This document shows positions 3,631 to 18,457 of a DNA stretch of 36,373 bases, in pieces. This DNA comes from a virus. The notes below the pieces were generated by a model that worked only from the letters and a program-made list of their open reading frames with translations, was not told where the DNA came from and made no database searches. Position numbers and translations under genes: made by a program. The stretch lies in the UHGV virus genome UHGV-0172241, one strand, 5' to 3'. Position 1 is the first letter of the stretch. Each line of letters opens with the position of its first letter.

Positions 3631-4380
3631 ATGCAAGCATTACAAACAAAATCAAACATCGGAGAAATGTTCAACATACAAGAAAAAGAAAATGGAGAAA
3701 TCGCAATCAGCGGTCGTGAGCTTCATCAAGCTTTAGAAGTTTCAACTAGGTACGATAAGTGGTTCGAAAGAATGACGGAGTATGGTTTTGAAAACGGGAT
3801 AGATTTTATTTCGCAAGTTGAAAAAGTACACGGTCAAAAAAGGGCGCGTACTTATGAACAAATTAATCATATTCTCACATTAGACACTGCAAAAGAAATC
3901 GCAATGATTCAACGTAGTGAACCAGGTAAACGTGCAAGACAATACTTCATTCAAGTAGAGAAAGCATGGAACAGTCCAGAAATGATTATGAAACGTGCAT
4001 TGAAGATGGCTAATAACACAATCAACCAACTGGAAACACAAATTGAGAAAGACAAACCTAAAGTATTGTTTGCTGACGCAGTAGCAACAACTAAAACTTC
4101 TATTTTGGTAGGGGAATTAGCAAAAATCATTAAACAAAATGGTGTCAATATAGGACAACGAAGACTGTTTAAGTGGTTACGACAAAATGGTTTTTTAATA
4201 AAACGTCAAGGCGTCGACTATAACATGCCAACACAATACTCAATGGAACGAGAATTATTTGAAATCAAAGAAACGTCAATTACTCATTCAGACGGTCATA
4301 CATCAATTAGTAAGACCCCTAAAGTAACAGGTAAAGGGCAACAATACTTTATTAACAAATTTTTAACAAATGAACTATAA
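3631..4380 (+). CDS. ant: phage antirepressor (Bro-N/KilA-C type)
   Basis: The N-terminal ...ISGRELHQALEV..YDKWFERM region resembles AntA/Bro-N antirepressor domains common in staphylococcal phages. RBS GAAAGGAG upstream. Confidence 0.8.
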   Translation: MQALQTKSNIGEMFNIQEKENGEIAISGRELHQALEVSTRYDKWFERMTEYGFENGIDFISQVEKVHGQKRARTYEQINHILTLDTAKEIAMIQRSEPGKRARQYFIQVEKAWNSPEMIMKRALKMANNTINQLETQIEKDKPKVLFADAVATTKTSILVGELAKIIKQNGVNIGQRRLFKWLRQNGFLIKRQGVDYNMPTQYSMERELFEIKETSITHSDGHTSISKTPKVTGKGQQYFINKFLTNEL

Positions 4381-4417
4381 CCCACAATCGAACAAACAAC
4401 TTAAAGGAGTGAATGAA

Positions 4418-4561
4418 ATGAACAAGCTATACAAAACAACCCTCCTCATCACAATGGCAGTTGTGACGTGGAAGGTTATGAAAATCGAGCAGCAAATAAA
4501 AAATAATCTAAATGAATTTACAGCTACTATTCGAACTGATGATTTAAAGCGTAATCAGTAA
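4418..4561 (+). CDS. small hypothetical protein (about 47 aa from the internal ATG)
   Basis: RBS AAAGGAGTG upstream of the ATG at about 4418. The 3' end overlaps the convergent minus-strand gene. Confidence 0.4.
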   Translation: MNKLYKTTLLITMAVVTWKVMKIEQQIKNNLNEFTATIRTDDLKRNQ

Positions 4562-4704
4562 TTACTTTTAAAGCTTGCAAATATTCATTTTTGAAATATT
4601 CAACTCTATCTTCAGAGTTATCAAATTTCTTTTCATCAACCTTCAAAGTTTGAATATATGCTTTAGCAAACTCATTAGGTCGAATGGAAACCTCTGTTCT
4701 ATCC
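4527..4704 (-). CDS. small hypothetical protein (about 59 aa), antisense, GTG start
   Basis: Minus-strand RBS AAAGGGGGTG, then GTG about 5 nt later. It is preceded by the same TATAATGTTGTTATC element as gene 3310..3573. Confidence 0.45.
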
Positions 4705-4843
4705 ACAATACCACCCCCTTTCACAAAGGGATAACAACATTATATCAGAAAGGAACTAATAAATTGCTAGCACTACTGATTATCGTATTCATCACATGCG
4801 TGACCGTACAATACAAACTTAATTAACGAAAGGGAGAGAAGTA

Positions 4844-4948
4844 ATGCCACCACATATTCAACAAATGTTATTCGATTTCGCTCTTGAGCGAGGATATATA
4901 CAAAAAATTATAAAAATGGAGCAAAAACATGAGTCAAGAAATGATTGA
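4844..4948 (+). CDS. small ORF (34 aa)
   Basis: RBS GAAAGGGAGAG, then ATG. Typical early-region micro-ORF. Hand-derived coordinates. Confidence 0.3.
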   Translation: MPPHIQQMLFDFALERGYIQKIIKMEQKHESRND

Positions 4949-13648: not shown

Positions 13649-14065
13649 ATGATAGTTATTCAAAAGCATGACATCAAGAAGCTTGAAGACTACATAAAGA
13701 ATATAGAGGAATACCGCAAAGAATTTCTGATGCGTGGATATGAGTTAATGGAAAACCACGAGCCAGAGAATGTAGGTGCTGGCAAGAGTAATTTACCGGG
13801 AAATCCTATTGAGAGAGAGACGGTTAAGAAGTTGAGTGATAATAGATATGTAATGCTGCGCAACGTGGTCAAAGGTGTAGATAAGCTTATATTTGAAGCT
13901 GACGAAGATACTAAAGACTTAATACGATTAAGATACTGGGAGTGTCCTATTGGATGCTACGAATGGGAAGACATCGCTAACTACTTTGGTATTAGTAAAA
14001 CGAGTGTATTAAGACGTAGAGATGCGATGATTAGTAGGTTAGCCGAGTTTATAGGATACGTATAG
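13649..14065 (+). CDS. rinA: RinA/ArpU-family late-gene transcriptional activator
   Basis: 138 aa, immediately upstream of terS. The C-terminal ...ISKTSVLRRRDAMISRLAEFIG region is a sigma-70 region-4-like HTH typical of the RinA family. Confidence 0.7.
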   Translation: MIVIQKHDIKKLEDYIKNIEEYRKEFLMRGYELMENHEPENVGAGKSNLPGNPIERETVKKLSDNRYVMLRNVVKGVDKLIFEADEDTKDLIRLRYWECPIGCYEWEDIANYFGISKTSVLRRRDAMISRLAEFIGYV

Positions 14066-14090
14066 CGGACTTTTGAGGTATGTAAGTCCG
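14066..14090 (+). terminator. hairpin after rinA (weak terminator or attenuator)
   Basis: Stem CGGACTT/AAGTCCG with an 11-nt loop and a poor U-tract (GTTTG). Confidence 0.35.
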
Positions 14091-14301
14091 GTTTGAAAAG
14101 GCTTATCATGGTATTGTGAACGAACCGCCGTAACAAGACGTTGTCTTATGGCAGAGACTTCACAAGCTAATGGTATTTTTAGTTTATATGTTCGTCTCCT
14201 AATAAATTATGTTTAACTCCTATTAAGCTATTCGTGAGCAAACACGAGTAGCTTTTTAAATTTATAAAAAGATAATATCGTGAGAGTTGGTGGTAAATGA
14301 A

Positions 14302-14730
14302 ATGGGCAGAAGAACATTATATGAAAAATTAGATATAAAAGATAAACTAGATCTTGTTGAGGGATGGAAACGTGATGGTCTCACAGACGAACAAATAGCG
14401 CGAAATTTTGGCGTTAATTTTAAAACGGTTATGAAATGGAAAGAAGACCACTCGGAGTTTATGGAGGCCATAAAAAAGGGCAAAGAAGTTTCTGATTATG
14501 AATTAGAAAACGCATTGCATAAGAGAGCTACAGGCTACTACTACGAAGAAGAAACAGTCACTAATGCAGGTAAGGTTGTCAAAGTTAAAAAGTACGAGCA
14601 TGCTAACCCTACGTCACTTATATTTGCACTTAAAAACAGATTGCCGCACAAATACAGAGATAAAGTAGAACAGGAAATCACAAACCGTAACTTCGAAATT
14701 AAAATAGGTGATTATGATGACGAAAGTTAA
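14302..14730 (+). CDS. terS: terminase small subunit
   Basis: Position immediately before terL. An HTH-like N-terminus (..GLTDEQIARNFGVNFKTVMKW..) is typical of TerS. The track ORF starts at 14287 (TTG). The ATG at 14302 is the more likely start. Confidence 0.8.
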   Translation: MGRRTLYEKLDIKDKLDLVEGWKRDGLTDEQIARNFGVNFKTVMKWKEDHSEFMEAIKKGKEVSDYELENALHKRATGYYYEEETVTNAGKVVKVKKYEHANPTSLIFALKNRLPHKYRDKVEQEITNRNFEIKIGDYDDES

Positions 14731-16174
14731 ACTGCGGTTTGACAATCCCGCTAAAGTATTCAATCGTAATATATTTGATGTACTGTTCGATTACGATAAC
14801 TTTACTGAAGTGCATTATGGTGGTGGTTCAAGTGGTAAATCGCACGGGGTTATACAAAAAGTTGTGCTTAAAGCATTGAAAGATTGGAAGTATCCTAGAC
14901 GTATATTGTGGCTTAGAAAAGTTCAGTCTACAATTAAAGATAGTTTGTTCGAAGATGTGAAAGCATGTTTAATAAACTTTGGGATTTGGGATATGTGTCT
15001 TTGGAATAAGACTGATAACAAAGTAGTGTTGCCAAACGGCGCAGTTTTTTTGTTTAAAGGATTGGATAACCCAGAGAAAATAAAGTCGATTAAAGGTATA
15101 TCAGACATAGTGATGGAAGAAGCGTCTGAATTCACATTGAATGATTACACACAGTTGACATTGCGTTTGAGAGAACGCAAACACATCAACAAACAAATAT
15201 TCTTGATGTTTAACCCGGTTTCTAAATTGAACTGGGTTTATAAGTATTTCTTTGAGCATGATGAACCGATGGAAAATGTCATGATTAGACAATCTAGTTA
15301 TCGAGATAATAAGTTTCTTGATGAGATGACGCGTCAAAACTTAGAGTTGTTAGCAAATCGTAACCCTGCTTATTACAAAATATATGCTTTAGGAGAATTT
15401 GCGACACTTGATAAATTAGTTTTTCCTAAGTATAAAAAAAGACTGATTAACAAACAAGAGTTACTACATTTGCCCTCTTATTTCGGAATAGATTTCGGTT
15501 ATGTCAATGATCCTAGTGCGTTTGTTCATGTAAAAGTTGATACAGAAAATAAAAACCTCTACATTGTGGAAGAATATGTAAAAAAAGGTATGCTAAACAA
15601 CGAGATAGCCGACGTTATAAAAAATCTGGGATACTCAAAAGAAGTTATAACGGGGGATAGTGCAGAACAAAAAAGTATAGCAGAGATTAGTAATCACGGC
15701 ATATCACGTATTAGACCGGCTTTAAAAGGTAAAGATAGTATAATGGCTGGCATACAATTCCTTAGTCAATTCGATATCGTTATAGATGAACGTTGCTATA
15801 AAACTCTAGAGGAATTCGACAATTACACTTGGAAAAAAGATAAAAAAACAGAAGAATATTATAACGAACCCGTTGACACATACAATCACTGTGTAACAGG
15901 AGATACATTGATTAACACTACATCTGGAGCTAAGCCAATAAAAGAATTGGTAGGCACAGAAGGTAGTGTTTTTTGTTATGACGAAATAAATAAAGAAAAA
16001 GTAACGTCTAAATATTTTGATGTGCGTAAGACGAGAGAACAAGCTCTAGTATTCGAAATAGAAACGGAGAGTGGCAAGAAATTTAAAGCTACTAGTGATC
16101 ACTTAGTGTTAACCAAAGACGGTTGGAAGATGCTGAAAGAGCTGAATGTAAATGACGAAATAATAAAAGTTTAA
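14708..16174 (+). CDS. terL: terminase large subunit N-terminal part (N-extein 14708..15889) fused to an intein N-terminal splicing domain (15890..16171), closed by an in-frame TAA
   Basis: ATPase Walker A motif GGGSSGKS is present. The nuclease-region motif ...EPVDTYNH is followed by the intein block A CVTGDTLINTTSG and block B ATSDHLVLT. Confidence 0.85.
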   Translation: MIMMTKVKLRFDNPAKVFNRNIFDVLFDYDNFTEVHYGGGSSGKSHGVIQKVVLKALKDWKYPRRILWLRKVQSTIKDSLFEDVKACLINFGIWDMCLWNKTDNKVVLPNGAVFLFKGLDNPEKIKSIKGISDIVMEEASEFTLNDYTQLTLRLRERKHINKQIFLMFNPVSKLNWVYKYFFEHDEPMENVMIRQSSYRDNKFLDEMTRQNLELLANRNPAYYKIYALGEFATLDKLVFPKYKKRLINKQELLHLPSYFGIDFGYVNDPSAFVHVKVDTENKNLYIVEEYVKKGMLNNEIADVIKNLGYSKEVITGDSAEQKSIAEISNHGISRIRPALKGKDSIMAGIQFLSQFDIVIDERCYKTLEEFDNYTWKKDKKTEEYYNEPVDTYNHCVTGDTLINTTSGAKPIKELVGTEGSVFCYDEINKEKVTSKYFDVRKTREQALVFEIETESGKKFKATSDHLVLTKDGWKMLKELNVNDEIIKV

Positions 16175-16892
16175 GAGGTGTCGTTAATGCAAAAGTACGT
16201 TTATTTCAATGGTATGAAATTCACTAGAGATGAAAATACAGGGTATTATCTCAATTCTACTAATAGAATTAGATTACATCGGTATGTATGGGAGCAAACA
16301 CACGGGAAAATTCCTAAAGGCTATCATATCCATCATATTGACGGGGATAAAAGAAATAACGATATTTCTAACCTAATGATGTTAACGCCTACCGAACATC
16401 TCTCATATCATGGGAATAAGCGCGCTAGTGAAAATTACGAGACAATAGTGAAAAATCTCGATTTAAATGCGCGTCCTAAAGCGAACGAATGGCATGCCTC
16501 AGAAAAAGGTAGAGAATGGCACAAAAAACACTACAACGATATGAAAACTAAATTACATAAAGAAACGGAGTTTAAATGCGAACAATGTAACAAACGCTTT
16601 ATTGCAATTAACAATGGTAAGAATAGATTTTGTTCAAATAATTGTAAATCTAAATGGCGTAGAGTTAATGGTTTGGATGATGTTATTAAGGAGTGTGTGT
16701 ATTGTGAAGGAAAATTTACTTCAAACAAATACAGCAAAAGAAAAACATGCAGTAGAAGATGCGCTAACAAACAAAGAACCGAAGACAGAAAAAATAAAGA
16801 GTATCAAGTTTCATAGTATTCAAGATGTTTACAATATGGAAGTTGAAAAATATCATAACTACGCTGTTGAAGGCGGGTTAATTATTCATAAT
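15890..16892 (+). other. intein (Hint N- and C-terminal splicing blocks with an embedded HNH endonuclease) inserted in the terL nuclease motif. 1003 nt, not a multiple of 3
   Basis: N-terminal Cys1 (tgt at 15890-15892). C-terminal ...VYNMEVEKYHNYAVEGGLIIHN (ending at 16892) followed by the +1 Cys of the extein motif CIDALRY. Removing 15890..16892 restores the canonical TerL motif DTYNH-C-IDALRY. Confidence 0.75.
16187..16816 (+). CDS. HNH homing endonuclease encoded inside the intein, with its own RBS
   Basis: Strong SD AAGAGGTG (16173-16180) 6 nt before the ATG at 16187. HNH motif ...HIHHIDGDKRNNDISNLMMLTPTEH... and C-terminal Cys clusters (CEQC...C..NC, CVYC...C..RC). Confidence 0.8.
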   Translation: MQKYVYFNGMKFTRDENTGYYLNSTNRIRLHRYVWEQTHGKIPKGYHIHHIDGDKRNNDISNLMMLTPTEHLSYHGNKRASENYETIVKNLDLNARPKANEWHASEKGREWHKKHYNDMKTKLHKETEFKCEQCNKRFIAINNGKNRFCSNNCKSKWRRVNGLDDVIKECVYCEGKFTSNKYSKRKTCSRRCANKQRTEDRKNKEYQVS

Positions 16893-16994
16893 TGCATAGA
16901 TGCACTTCGATATAGCGTTGAAATGTTAATGATAAACAATAAAAAACAAAAGAAAAAAGCTAGTGATTTACGAAGAATAAAAAATATGTTTTAA
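16602..16994 (+). CDS. terL: intein C-terminal splicing block (about 16795..16892) plus TerL C-extein (16893..16991), in a +1 frame relative to the HNH ORF. No canonical start codon near the block
   Basis: The frame-0 ORF contains ...IKSIKFHSIQDVYNMEVEKYHNYAVEGGLIIHN|CIDALRYSVEMLMINNKK... Upstream of about 16790 this frame merely overlaps the HNH ORF. Confidence 0.5.
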   Translation: MQLTMVRIDFVQIIVNLNGVELMVWMMLLRSVCIVKENLLQTNTAKEKHAVEDALTNKEPKTEKIKSIKFHSIQDVYNMEVEKYHNYAVEGGLIIHNCIDALRYSVEMLMINNKKQKKKASDLRRIKNMF

Positions 16995-17005
16995 GGAGTG
17001 AGTAA

Positions 17006-18457
17006 ATGACTTTATACACAGTTGGTAACGTACAAGAAAAGTTTTCTCCAACAGCAAACGACGATTTTGTCGTCAATGATTTAGATGAGTTGTTTAAAGA
17101 CGATTATATAAGAAACTTGATTAGCAGACATAAGACAGAGCAGCTACCTAGATTGGAAATGTTAGAGGCGTATTACTTAAATAGAAACACTGACATTTTA
17201 ACTGGAGAGCGCCGTTTGAATAACAACGGAGACAAAGCAGACCACAGAGCAGTACATAACTACGCTAGATACGTTTCTAGATTTATAGTTGGTTATCTGA
17301 CCGGGAACCCTATCACAATCACGCACACGAACAACAAAACAAACAACAAGATTATTGAACTCAATGACAAGAACGACGCTGATGAAATAAACAGCGACTT
17401 AGCATTGAATTTGTCTATATACGGACGTGCATACGAGATTGTATACAGAGACATGAAAGATAATGACACATTTAGAGTGTTAGACCCTAAAAGTACGTTC
17501 GTTGTCTACGATAGCTCGTTAGACAAACGTGTTATAGCGGGTGTTAGATATTATGAAAAGTCAGATGCAAACAATATACCTACGAGCTATATAGAAGTTT
17601 ACACAGAACAAGACATTTATTATTTGCAAGTCAAAGACGGTTCTATTGTAGTAAATGATGTAGTTAAGCACTTCTACAATGAAGTACCTGTTATAGAATA
17701 CTTGAACGACCAATTCAAACAAGGAGATTTCGAGAACGTTATTTCTTTAATTGATTTATATGACGCCAGCCAATCTGATACAGCTAACTATATGTCAGAT
17801 ACTAACGATGCAATGTTAGCATTGATTGGTAATGCTGATTTAGACGGAGAAGATGCGAAAGCGTTTAGAGATGCAAACATGATCCACATCAAACCTTCGA
17901 TAAACGCTAATGGTGGAGAAGGCAAAGCTGACGCTAAGTATATTTATAAACAATATGATGTTTCTGGTTCCGAAGCATATAAAAAGAGATTGCAAAATGA
18001 CATTCACAAATACACAAATACACCGGATTTAAACGATGAAAATTTCAGCGGTATTCAATCCGGCGAGTCAATGAAATACAAATTGTTTGGACTTGAACAA
18101 GTTAGAGCAATAAAAGAGAGATTGTTTAAAAAAGGGTTGATGAAACGATACAAGCTACTTCTAAACAAAGTGAATATAGAAAGCTTGGAAAATCACGATT
18201 ATTCAGAGTTAAACATTGTATTCACTCCTAATCTACCGAAATCACTAAAAGAATCAGTTGAGATTTTCAACGATTTAAATGGTGGCGTTTCAGAAGAAAC
18301 AAGATTAGGTGTACTTGATATAATCAAAAACCCTAAAGAAGAAATGAAGAAAATGGAAAAAGAAAAAGAAAAGCAAATACAATCCCGTGACAACAGCGAA
18401 TACAGCAATCTAACAAACGATAACAAAGAAGATGTGAATATAGATGTCGAAGAGTGA
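17006..18457 (+). CDS. portal protein (SPP1 gp6-like)
   Basis: 483 aa directly after terL. RBS AAGGAGTGAG. Acidic C-terminus typical of portals. Confidence 0.85.
   Translation: MTLYTVGNVQEKFSPTANDDFVVNDLDELFKDDYIRNLISRHKTEQLPRLEMLEAYYLNRNTDILTGERRLNNNGDKADHRAVHNYARYVSRFIVGYLTGNPITITHTNNKTNNKIIELNDKNDADEINSDLALNLSIYGRAYEIVYRDMKDNDTFRVLDPKSTFVVYDSSLDKRVIAGVRYYEKSDANNIPTSYIEVYTEQDIYYLQVKDGSIVVNDVVKHFYNEVPVIEYLNDQFKQGDFENVISLIDLYDASQSDTANYMSDTNDAMLALIGNADLDGEDAKAFRDANMIHIKPSINANGGEGKADAKYIYKQYDVSGSEAYKKRLQNDIHKYTNTPDLNDENFSGIQSGESMKYKLFGLEQVRAIKERLFKKGLMKRYKLLLNKVNIESLENHDYSELNIVFTPNLPKSLKESVEIFNDLNGGVSEETRLGVLDIIKNPKEEMKKMEKEKEKQIQSRDNSEYSNLTNDNKEDVNIDVEE

Follow-up and report, generated by a model that had tools for sequence, protein, structure and literature searches.

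Organization of the interrupted terL locus

The viral genome UHGV-0172241, a stretch of 36,373 nucleotides (nt) analysed as a whole and referred to here as the window, carries the gene for the large terminase subunit (terL) in an interrupted form. The interruption, at positions 15890..16892, consists of the two halves of a split intein with a free-standing HNH endonuclease gene between them, so that terL is broken into two genes and the locus holds three, without a single intein open reading frame (ORF). We propose that this terL, which belongs to a Staphylococcus lugdunensis-type prophage, is likely a fractured gene whose product, TerL, would be rebuilt by protein trans-splicing. The features of the locus, in amino acids (aa) where proteins are meant, are as follows.

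14714..15889, plus strand: TerL N-extein, comprising the ATPase domain and the greater part of the RNase-H-like nuclease domain up to ...EPVDTYNH
15890..16171, plus strand: IntN, the N-terminal split-intein half, 94 codons in the frame of the N-extein
16172-16174, plus strand: TAA stop codon of the TerL-N/IntN polypeptide, 94 codons past Cys1, overlapping the Shine-Dalgarno (SD) sequence of the HNH gene, AAGAGGTG (16173-16180)
16187..16816, plus strand: free-standing HNH endonuclease gene, 209 aa, with the HNH_3 catalytic motif followed by a C-terminal Cys-rich (CxxC) part
16688..16693, plus strand: SD sequence AAGGAG for the C piece (IntC plus TerL C-extein), within the HNH ORF and 10 nt before GTG 16704
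16704..16892, plus strand: IntC, the C-terminal split-intein half, in the +1 frame relative to HNH; start predicted
16704..16816, plus strand: dual-coding overlap of 113 nt, shared by the 3' end of the HNH gene in frame 2 and the 5' part of the C piece in frame 0
16893..16994, plus strand: TerL C-extein, with Cys+1 and IDALRY..., 33 codons and a stop, containing the last metal-binding motif of the nuclease

Joining 14714..15889 to 16893..16991 yields a TerL of 425 aa, or 427 aa from GTG 14708. The N-extein matches Pfam Terminase_3 (E = 1.2e-61) and Terminase_3C (E = 6.1e-39). The joined protein aligns without gaps to the TerL of phage 80alpha (82% identity over 423 aa), the alignment continuing across ...EPVDTYNH|CID..., and is colinear, again without gaps, with intein-free staphylococcal alleles of 424-427 aa (88-92% identity), which read YNEPVDTYNHCIDALRYSVEMLMINNKKQK across the junction, the same as the junction predicted here. 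Nucleotide homology to the terL genes of phi11, 80alpha and 187, all three without the element, stops precisely at 15892. The element is thus present sporadically and has empty alleles, encoding intein-free TerL proteins of 88-92% aa identity, as is characteristic of homing elements. The junction falls within ...NH-x-IDAxRY, a motif of the RNase-H-like nuclease domain whose His and Asp are active-site residues in SPP1 G2P. The C-extein junction aligns to DKDNHTIDATRY (...NHTIDATRY) of the SPP1 G2P nuclease domain structure 2wbn (E = 3.7e-19). After splicing, the predicted tryptic peptide across the TerL junction would be TEEYYNEPVDTYNHCIDALR.

The start of terL is placed at 14714 or 14717 by gene callers, with GTG 14708 and ATG 14717 as alternatives to ATG 14714. 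The ORF of the small subunit gene terS (14287..14730) overlaps ATG 14714 by 17 nt; the annotated terS/terL overlap of 80alpha is 80 nt, and such overlaps are ordinary in this phage group.

The two intein halves carry the canonical splicing motifs. Cys1 (TGT 15890-15892) directly follows ...EPVDTYNH, and IntN then reads CVTGDTLINTTSG (block A) and continues to block B, ATSDHLVLT, in which T68-S-D-H71 forms the TxxH signature. IntC comprises a predicted N-terminal extension of 27-28 codons and a Hint-C core (16791..16892, KIKSIKFHSIQDVYNMEVEKYHNYAVEGGLIIHN) that ends in ...VYNMEVEKYHNYAVEGGLIIHN, that is ...GGLIIHN, immediately before Cys+1 (TGC 16893-16895) of CIDALRY. IntN covers positions 7-93 of the 155 positions of the Pfam Intein_splicing profile (E = 4.9e-10) and IntC covers positions 104-155 (E = 1.7e-5). 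The division of the profile at 93|104 coincides with the endonuclease-insertion point, which separates the N-terminal blocks A, N2, B and N4 from blocks F/G. The protein encoded in between matches Pfam HNH_3 (E = 6.5e-19) and phrog_15471 (E = 1.8e-48) and has its own translation signals, with the SD core GAGGTG (16175-16180) located 6 nt upstream of ATG 16187.

The original prediction, made from the sequence of the window, had placed a textbook single intein at 15890..16892 in the nuclease motif of TerL. Much of it holds: block A with Cys1 and block B with TxxH follow EPVDTYNH, the HN block with Cys+1 precedes CIDALRY, excision rebuilds DTYNH-C-IDALRY in a protein colinear with intein-free TerL, and profile searches for Hint-N, Hint-C and HNH all find their Pfam families. 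What it overlooked were the reading frames. The interval is 1003 nt long, which leaves a remainder of 1 on division by 3, the frame of IntN closes at 16172-16174, and Hint-C lies in the +1 frame, so the intein is not in frame with both exteins as one ORF. The locus holds instead two ORFs on the same strand, N then C, at 14714..16174 (TerL-N plus IntN) and 16704..16994 (IntC plus TerL-C), with 530 nt between the IntN stop and the predicted IntC start. Because TerL is encoded in two ORFs, any repair must take the form of trans-splicing of two polypeptides. The claim that the interruption acts at the protein level survives in part: the element is of the HINT type and most likely operates on protein, although not as a contiguous intein that splices in cis. 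A contiguous intein with an internal HNH domain, spliced from one TerL precursor, would account for the presence of all Hint blocks and the HNH domain between the extein junctions, and the HNH of the window does share the frame of Hint-N, from which it is set apart by one stop and four sense codons. The frames of the locus refute it, and together with the loci described below they make it highly improbable.

Removal at the RNA level, with 15890..16892 as an HNH-bearing intron of group I or group II, would not require a length that is a multiple of 3. Phage group I introns, those of staphylococcal Kayvirus phages among them, often contain HNH ORFs, and over about 95 nt the catalytic region of this HNH gene is 78-82% similar in nucleotide sequence to homing endonuclease genes of this sort. 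Against an intron, Rfam returned no family in the window at the gathering score, nor in 15700-17100 at E<=1, and both flanks of the HNH gene encode conserved, in-frame Hint halves under purifying selection, for which an intron would have no need. We regard an intron as exceedingly unlikely.

Recurrence of the split layout in other phages

The architecture was determined by script for all loci of the family, 64 of them non-redundant (numbered with the prefix L below) and 56 with an HNH ORF or remnant; the sources include Brochothrix phage BL3, Lactobacillus phage CL2, an Anaerococcus metagenome-assembled genome and 80 IMG/VR viral contigs. The Hint-N frame stops 94-121 codons past Cys1 in each of the 56 HNH loci (94-113 codons where HNH is intact, 121 in BL3 with its remnant). 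The frame offset between Hint-N and HNH is 0, 1 and 2 in 19, 19 and 18 of the loci, respectively, and the spacer between them ranges from -44 to +748 nt, often containing an extended -10 box (TGnTATAAT) and an SD sequence. The Hint-C frame is the HNH frame +1 in 52 of 56. This variability of frames and spacers excludes sequencing error, and read-through combined with frameshifting cannot be a conserved mechanism, which further counts against a contiguous intein. None of the 56 HNH-containing loci is contiguous, so that the split state is ancestral and stable and not a recent lesion. Eight loci lack HNH: six contiguous mini-inteins (L048, L049, L053, L060, L084, L085) and two split inteins (L050, L083).

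Sequencing or assembly error at the locus itself is ruled out by the HNH protein, which occurs in identical form on 14 contigs, comprising independent NCBI assemblies and assemblies from raw reads, with the same layout and neighbouring genes in six of the six places inspected. Staphylococcus sp. HMSC068D08 has an identical protein under the label 'HNH endonuclease', and S. lugdunensis has near-identical ones.

The split layout is carried by two deposited phage genomes. In BL3, gp2 corresponds to TerL-N plus IntN and gp3 to IntC plus TerL-C, and all that lies between them is a zinc-finger HNH remnant. This remnant (L002, 2298..2420) keeps only the C-terminal Cys-rich part of HNH, and the Hint-N ORF extends 27 codons beyond the usual stop; the locus looks like an endonuclease-loss stage of the same element. 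CL2 has terL, then HNH, then the C piece. Its ORF for IntC and the TerL C-extein (L003, NC_028835, 2490..2774) is unannotated in the public record, and the TerL entry there is consequently a truncated protein with half an intein.

Members of this one intein family are inserted at the homologous His|Cys position in TerL proteins of two Pfam families, Terminase_3 (window, L002) and Terminase_6N (L003, L036, L048); this implies that the element has passed between unrelated terminases at a motif common to both. Eight loci that form one branch (L036, L039, L040, L047, L059, L061, L062, L066) have an additional 550-750 nt between the end of the Hint-N frame and the HNH start codon (roughly 4289..4860, numbered within the locus); in L036 this stretch contains small ORFs only (58-65 aa).

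An extended -10 box (TGnTATAAT) and an SD sequence are found just before the HNH gene in many relatives (e.g. L009, L013, L027, L032, L034, L054), and this sequence context suggests that the endonuclease may have its own promoter there. The spacer of the window is only 12 nt with an SD sequence (16172..16186), so that its HNH gene probably relies on transcription of terL. A single late transcript probably serves all three ORFs. RNA folding shows no unusual structure at the ribosome-binding site of HNH (z = -0.03) or at the start of the C piece (z = +1.2), and so provides no evidence at either internal start for hairpins that sequester the ribosome-binding site, as in Dassa et al. (PMC2677866).

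The HNH protein is a putative homing endonuclease. A role as a packaging-accessory HNH, of the type found in cos phages, was considered and rejected: intein-free alleles of the same TerL are without HNH, HNH_3 is a homing-type family, and the gene lies inside the intein and not beside the terminase genes.

The frame of the C piece is open from 16545 to 16994, and its first start codon is TTG 16602. The stop codon of the HNH gene falls within the Hint-C core, 76 nt ahead of the splice junction, so translation of the C piece has to begin inside the HNH ORF. The sequence points to GTG 16704 as the most likely start, with ATG 16668, 16677 and 16680 as alternatives; NCBI and one gene caller both predict exactly the 96-aa ORF that begins at this GTG. 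Over the 27 codons upstream of the core, 41 of 51 loci have no stop in the C frame, versus 26% expected (binomial P of about 5e-16), although the loci are phylogenetically related, so that both the counts and the P value overstate their independence. The expectation derives from the same +1 frame elsewhere in the HNH ORFs, where one stop occurs per 19 codons and 26% of 27-codon windows are open. A minority of loci have their own ATG and SD sequence 33-43 codons before the junction.

Selection, fold and the proposed trans-splicing

The residues required for splicing are conserved throughout the family. Cys1, the TxxH of block B and the terminal His-Asn are invariant in 50 of 50 relatives (40-90% identical), and the +1 residue is Cys in 46 of them and Ser in 4. 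Median pairwise ratios of nonsynonymous to synonymous substitution rates (dN/dS) are 0.31 for IntN and 0.19 for IntC; compared with its closest relative, L008, the window has a dN/dS of 0.058 (dS 0.81). Both halves are thus under purifying selection. The 30 N-extein codons upstream of the intein have a median dN/dS of about 1.15 with a huge spread, which is uninformative because the exteins, coming from different TerL families, do not consist of homologous codons.

When IntN and IntC are joined in silico, the product has end-to-end phmmer matches to solved mini- and split inteins (4o1r, 4kl5, 7cfv). AlphaFold (AF2) with a 15-row alignment gives a model with a predicted local distance difference test score (pLDDT) of 90.8 and a predicted TM score (pTM) of 0.81; the same fusion in a single-sequence run has a pLDDT of 37. 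A Foldseek search with the model returned the Ssp DnaB mini-intein 1mi8 (TM 0.91, root mean square deviation 2.0 Å), with further matches to Npu DnaE, NrdJ-1 and gp41-1. In the model the joined halves form a complete HINT domain.

From its sequence, the window looks like a complete prophage of the serine-recombinase type. Other long ORFs, encoding the serine recombinase, DnaB, a rinA-like gene, terS, portal, tape measure, holin and a CHAP-amidase-SH3 lysin, are all uninterrupted. At the nucleotide level the structural module resembles deposited phages little: the only matches are short and of 75-88% identity.

These data bear on the possibility that the intein is decaying in a defective prophage that has gained a stop and a frameshift, in which case TerL would be dead and packaging would not occur. 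NCBI pipelines do leave the pieces as fragments, labelled 'hypothetical protein' or 'Hint domain-containing protein', as expected for a broken terL. Decay is nevertheless quite unlikely. The purifying selection on both halves, the invariant catalytic residues, the C frame held open in the overlap, the intact state of all other long prophage ORFs, the predicted fold and the identical layout in the deposited phages BL3 and CL2 argue together against a dead terL, as does the lack of any contiguous copy among the HNH-containing loci.

A further alternative is that the TerL fragments act without covalent joining, the intein halves serving only as a high-affinity dimerisation module. Split-intein halves bind each other tightly, which counts in its favour. 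Functional fractured genes without splicing also have a precedent in the HNH-fractured NrdA of phage Aeh1, whose parts reportedly assemble unspliced (work of Gibb and Edgell cited in PMC2677866; see also PMC3045599). Such a module would have no use for the residues that serve only the chemistry (Cys1, the block-B His, the terminal Asn and the +1 Cys or Ser), all of them invariant in 50/50 relatives at 40-50% overall identity; moreover, the break interrupts the HxxD motif of the nuclease active site, which would hardly offer room for a bulky HINT domain of 16 kDa. We consider this assembly unlikely.

From the conserved catalytic residues and the purifying selection we infer that TerL is rebuilt by trans-splicing, and the following sequence of events can be proposed. 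ORF 1 encodes TerL residues 1-392 and the 94-aa N-intein; ORF 2 encodes the HNH_3 endonuclease from its own ribosome-binding site; and ORF 3, starting inside ORF 2 in the +1 frame, most likely at GTG 16704, encodes the C-intein and the last 33 residues of TerL. All three ORFs would be translated from the late packaging transcript, and IntN and IntC would associate into a complete HINT domain that carries out class-1 protein trans-splicing. In this reaction Cys1 would form a thioester, Cys+1 would effect the transesterification and the terminal Asn would cyclise, joining ...DTYNH to CIDALRY... and restoring the HxxD active-site motif of the nuclease in a 425-aa TerL. During co-infection, or when a prophage encounters a phage, HNH may cut intein-free terL near the His-Cys codons, and the cassette would then be copied in.

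Along with the shared ancestry of the loci noted above, several points weigh against trans-splicing as proposed. The start of the C piece is a prediction, and the SD sequence is weaker at the homologous GTG of the close relatives L008 and L013. The predicted C-intein has 63 aa versus the 33-54 aa reported for inteins of fractured genes. A promoter and terminator scan of 14000-17300 found no signal above shuffled expectation that would delimit the transcription units.

A broader reading would combine these elements. The cassette of IntN stop, HNH and overlapping IntC start would actively home between the unrelated TerL families Terminase_3 and Terminase_6N at the His|Cys/Ser motif across Firmicutes phages. 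Obligatory trans-splicing would have been co-opted as a post-translational checkpoint, with the packaging nuclease becoming active only once both fragments accumulate late, and expression of HNH and of TerL-C would be coupled through the 113-nt overlap. Mesophilic phages that can be cultivated would, through this family, also become a source of canonical Cys1/Cys+1 split inteins. As a whole we find this reading possible but doubtful.

Annotation and comparison with known systems

The family, a large one, carries no name in current databases. For the C piece (16704..16991), the counterparts are phrog_28563 (E = 6.7e-20), classed as 'unknown function', and the NCBI 'hypothetical protein' WP_242247883.1; a possible new name for both is 'terminase large subunit C-terminal fragment with C-intein'. 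NCBI lists the pieces under the two labels given above, and a word-indexed protein search returned only 14 matches. Because pipelines treat terL as broken, such prophages risk being scored as defective though they are probably not. With its dozens of natural Cys1/Cys+1 split inteins of the canonical type, found in mesophiles, the family is also a collection in which to screen for fast and orthogonal trans-splicing.

The Npu/Ssp DnaE split intein, with an IntN of about 100 aa and an IntC of about 36 aa, shares the fold, the split position and class-1 Cys1/Cys+1 chemistry. The DnaE halves lie far apart without an endonuclease, whereas those of the window are 530 nt apart with HNH between them. 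The metagenomic inteins AceL-TerL and GOS-TerL, said to have been described by Thiel and colleagues in 2014, are likewise naturally split and located in a phage large terminase. They are reportedly split at an atypical position close to the N-terminus, into an IntN of about 25 aa and an IntC of about 100 aa, whereas the intein of the window is split at the canonical site, into 94 aa and at least 34 aa.

Conserved TerL motifs are also the target of the contiguous terminase inteins of actinobacteriophages and other phages (Kelley et al. 2016; 10.1101/2025.01.02.630785). Those of actinobacteriophages, some with HNH or out-of-frame endonucleases, stay single ORFs (Gosselin et al. 2025, 10.1101/2025.01.02.630785), unlike the window, where the splicing domain itself is divided by a stop. 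An HNH version of a fractured gene has been described in PolB of the Pseudomonas jumbo phage MIJ3 (PMC6892783). Its three ORFs are arranged likewise, with IntN and IntC flanking an endonuclease of the HNH family, and it differs in host gene, phage type and host phylum, in having a Ser1/Ser+1 intein, and in being a single case and not a family.

The nearest precedent for the arrangement as a whole is the set of fractured genes reported by Dassa et al. 2009 (PMC2677866), in which an IntN of 88-105 aa is followed by a free-standing endonuclease whose 3' end overlaps the IntC ORF by 6-69 bp. The window resembles these genes in its two ORFs on the same strand, its IntN of 94 aa placed after the N-extein, the endonuclease's own translation signals, the 3' overlap with IntC, the split at the canonical insertion point and its place in phage DNA metabolism; NrdJ-1 and gp41-1, both among the structural matches, belong to that set. 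The published set comprised marine metagenome fragments with GIY-YIG and Vsr-like endonucleases only, HNH enzymes being predicted to be able to fracture genes too, and its single terminase case was a gp17-like gene with an atypical split (122-aa IntC). The window differs in its HNH gene and a 113-bp overlap, and its family resides in the terL genes of temperate siphoviruses of Firmicutes, cultured phages and staphylococcal prophages among them. All stages of the Dassa et al. gene-breaking model are represented in this one family: contiguous mini-inteins, split inteins with intact HNH, a split intein with a remnant (BL3) and split inteins without HNH. Its presence in the cultivable phages BL3 and CL2 and in S. 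lugdunensis-type prophages makes the model testable by experiment.

The original prediction had also held that no such arrangement was known in staphylococcal terL. For staphylococci this stands: the element is absent from 50,697 phage records from Staphylococcus, and literature searches returned no description of the split terminase of BL3, CL2 or staphylococci; the kind of arrangement itself had been published (PMC2677866; PMC6892783). The fractured-gene layout is already known, and the locus described here is its first occurrence found in staphylococcal prophages, within a sizeable unannotated family of Firmicutes phages.

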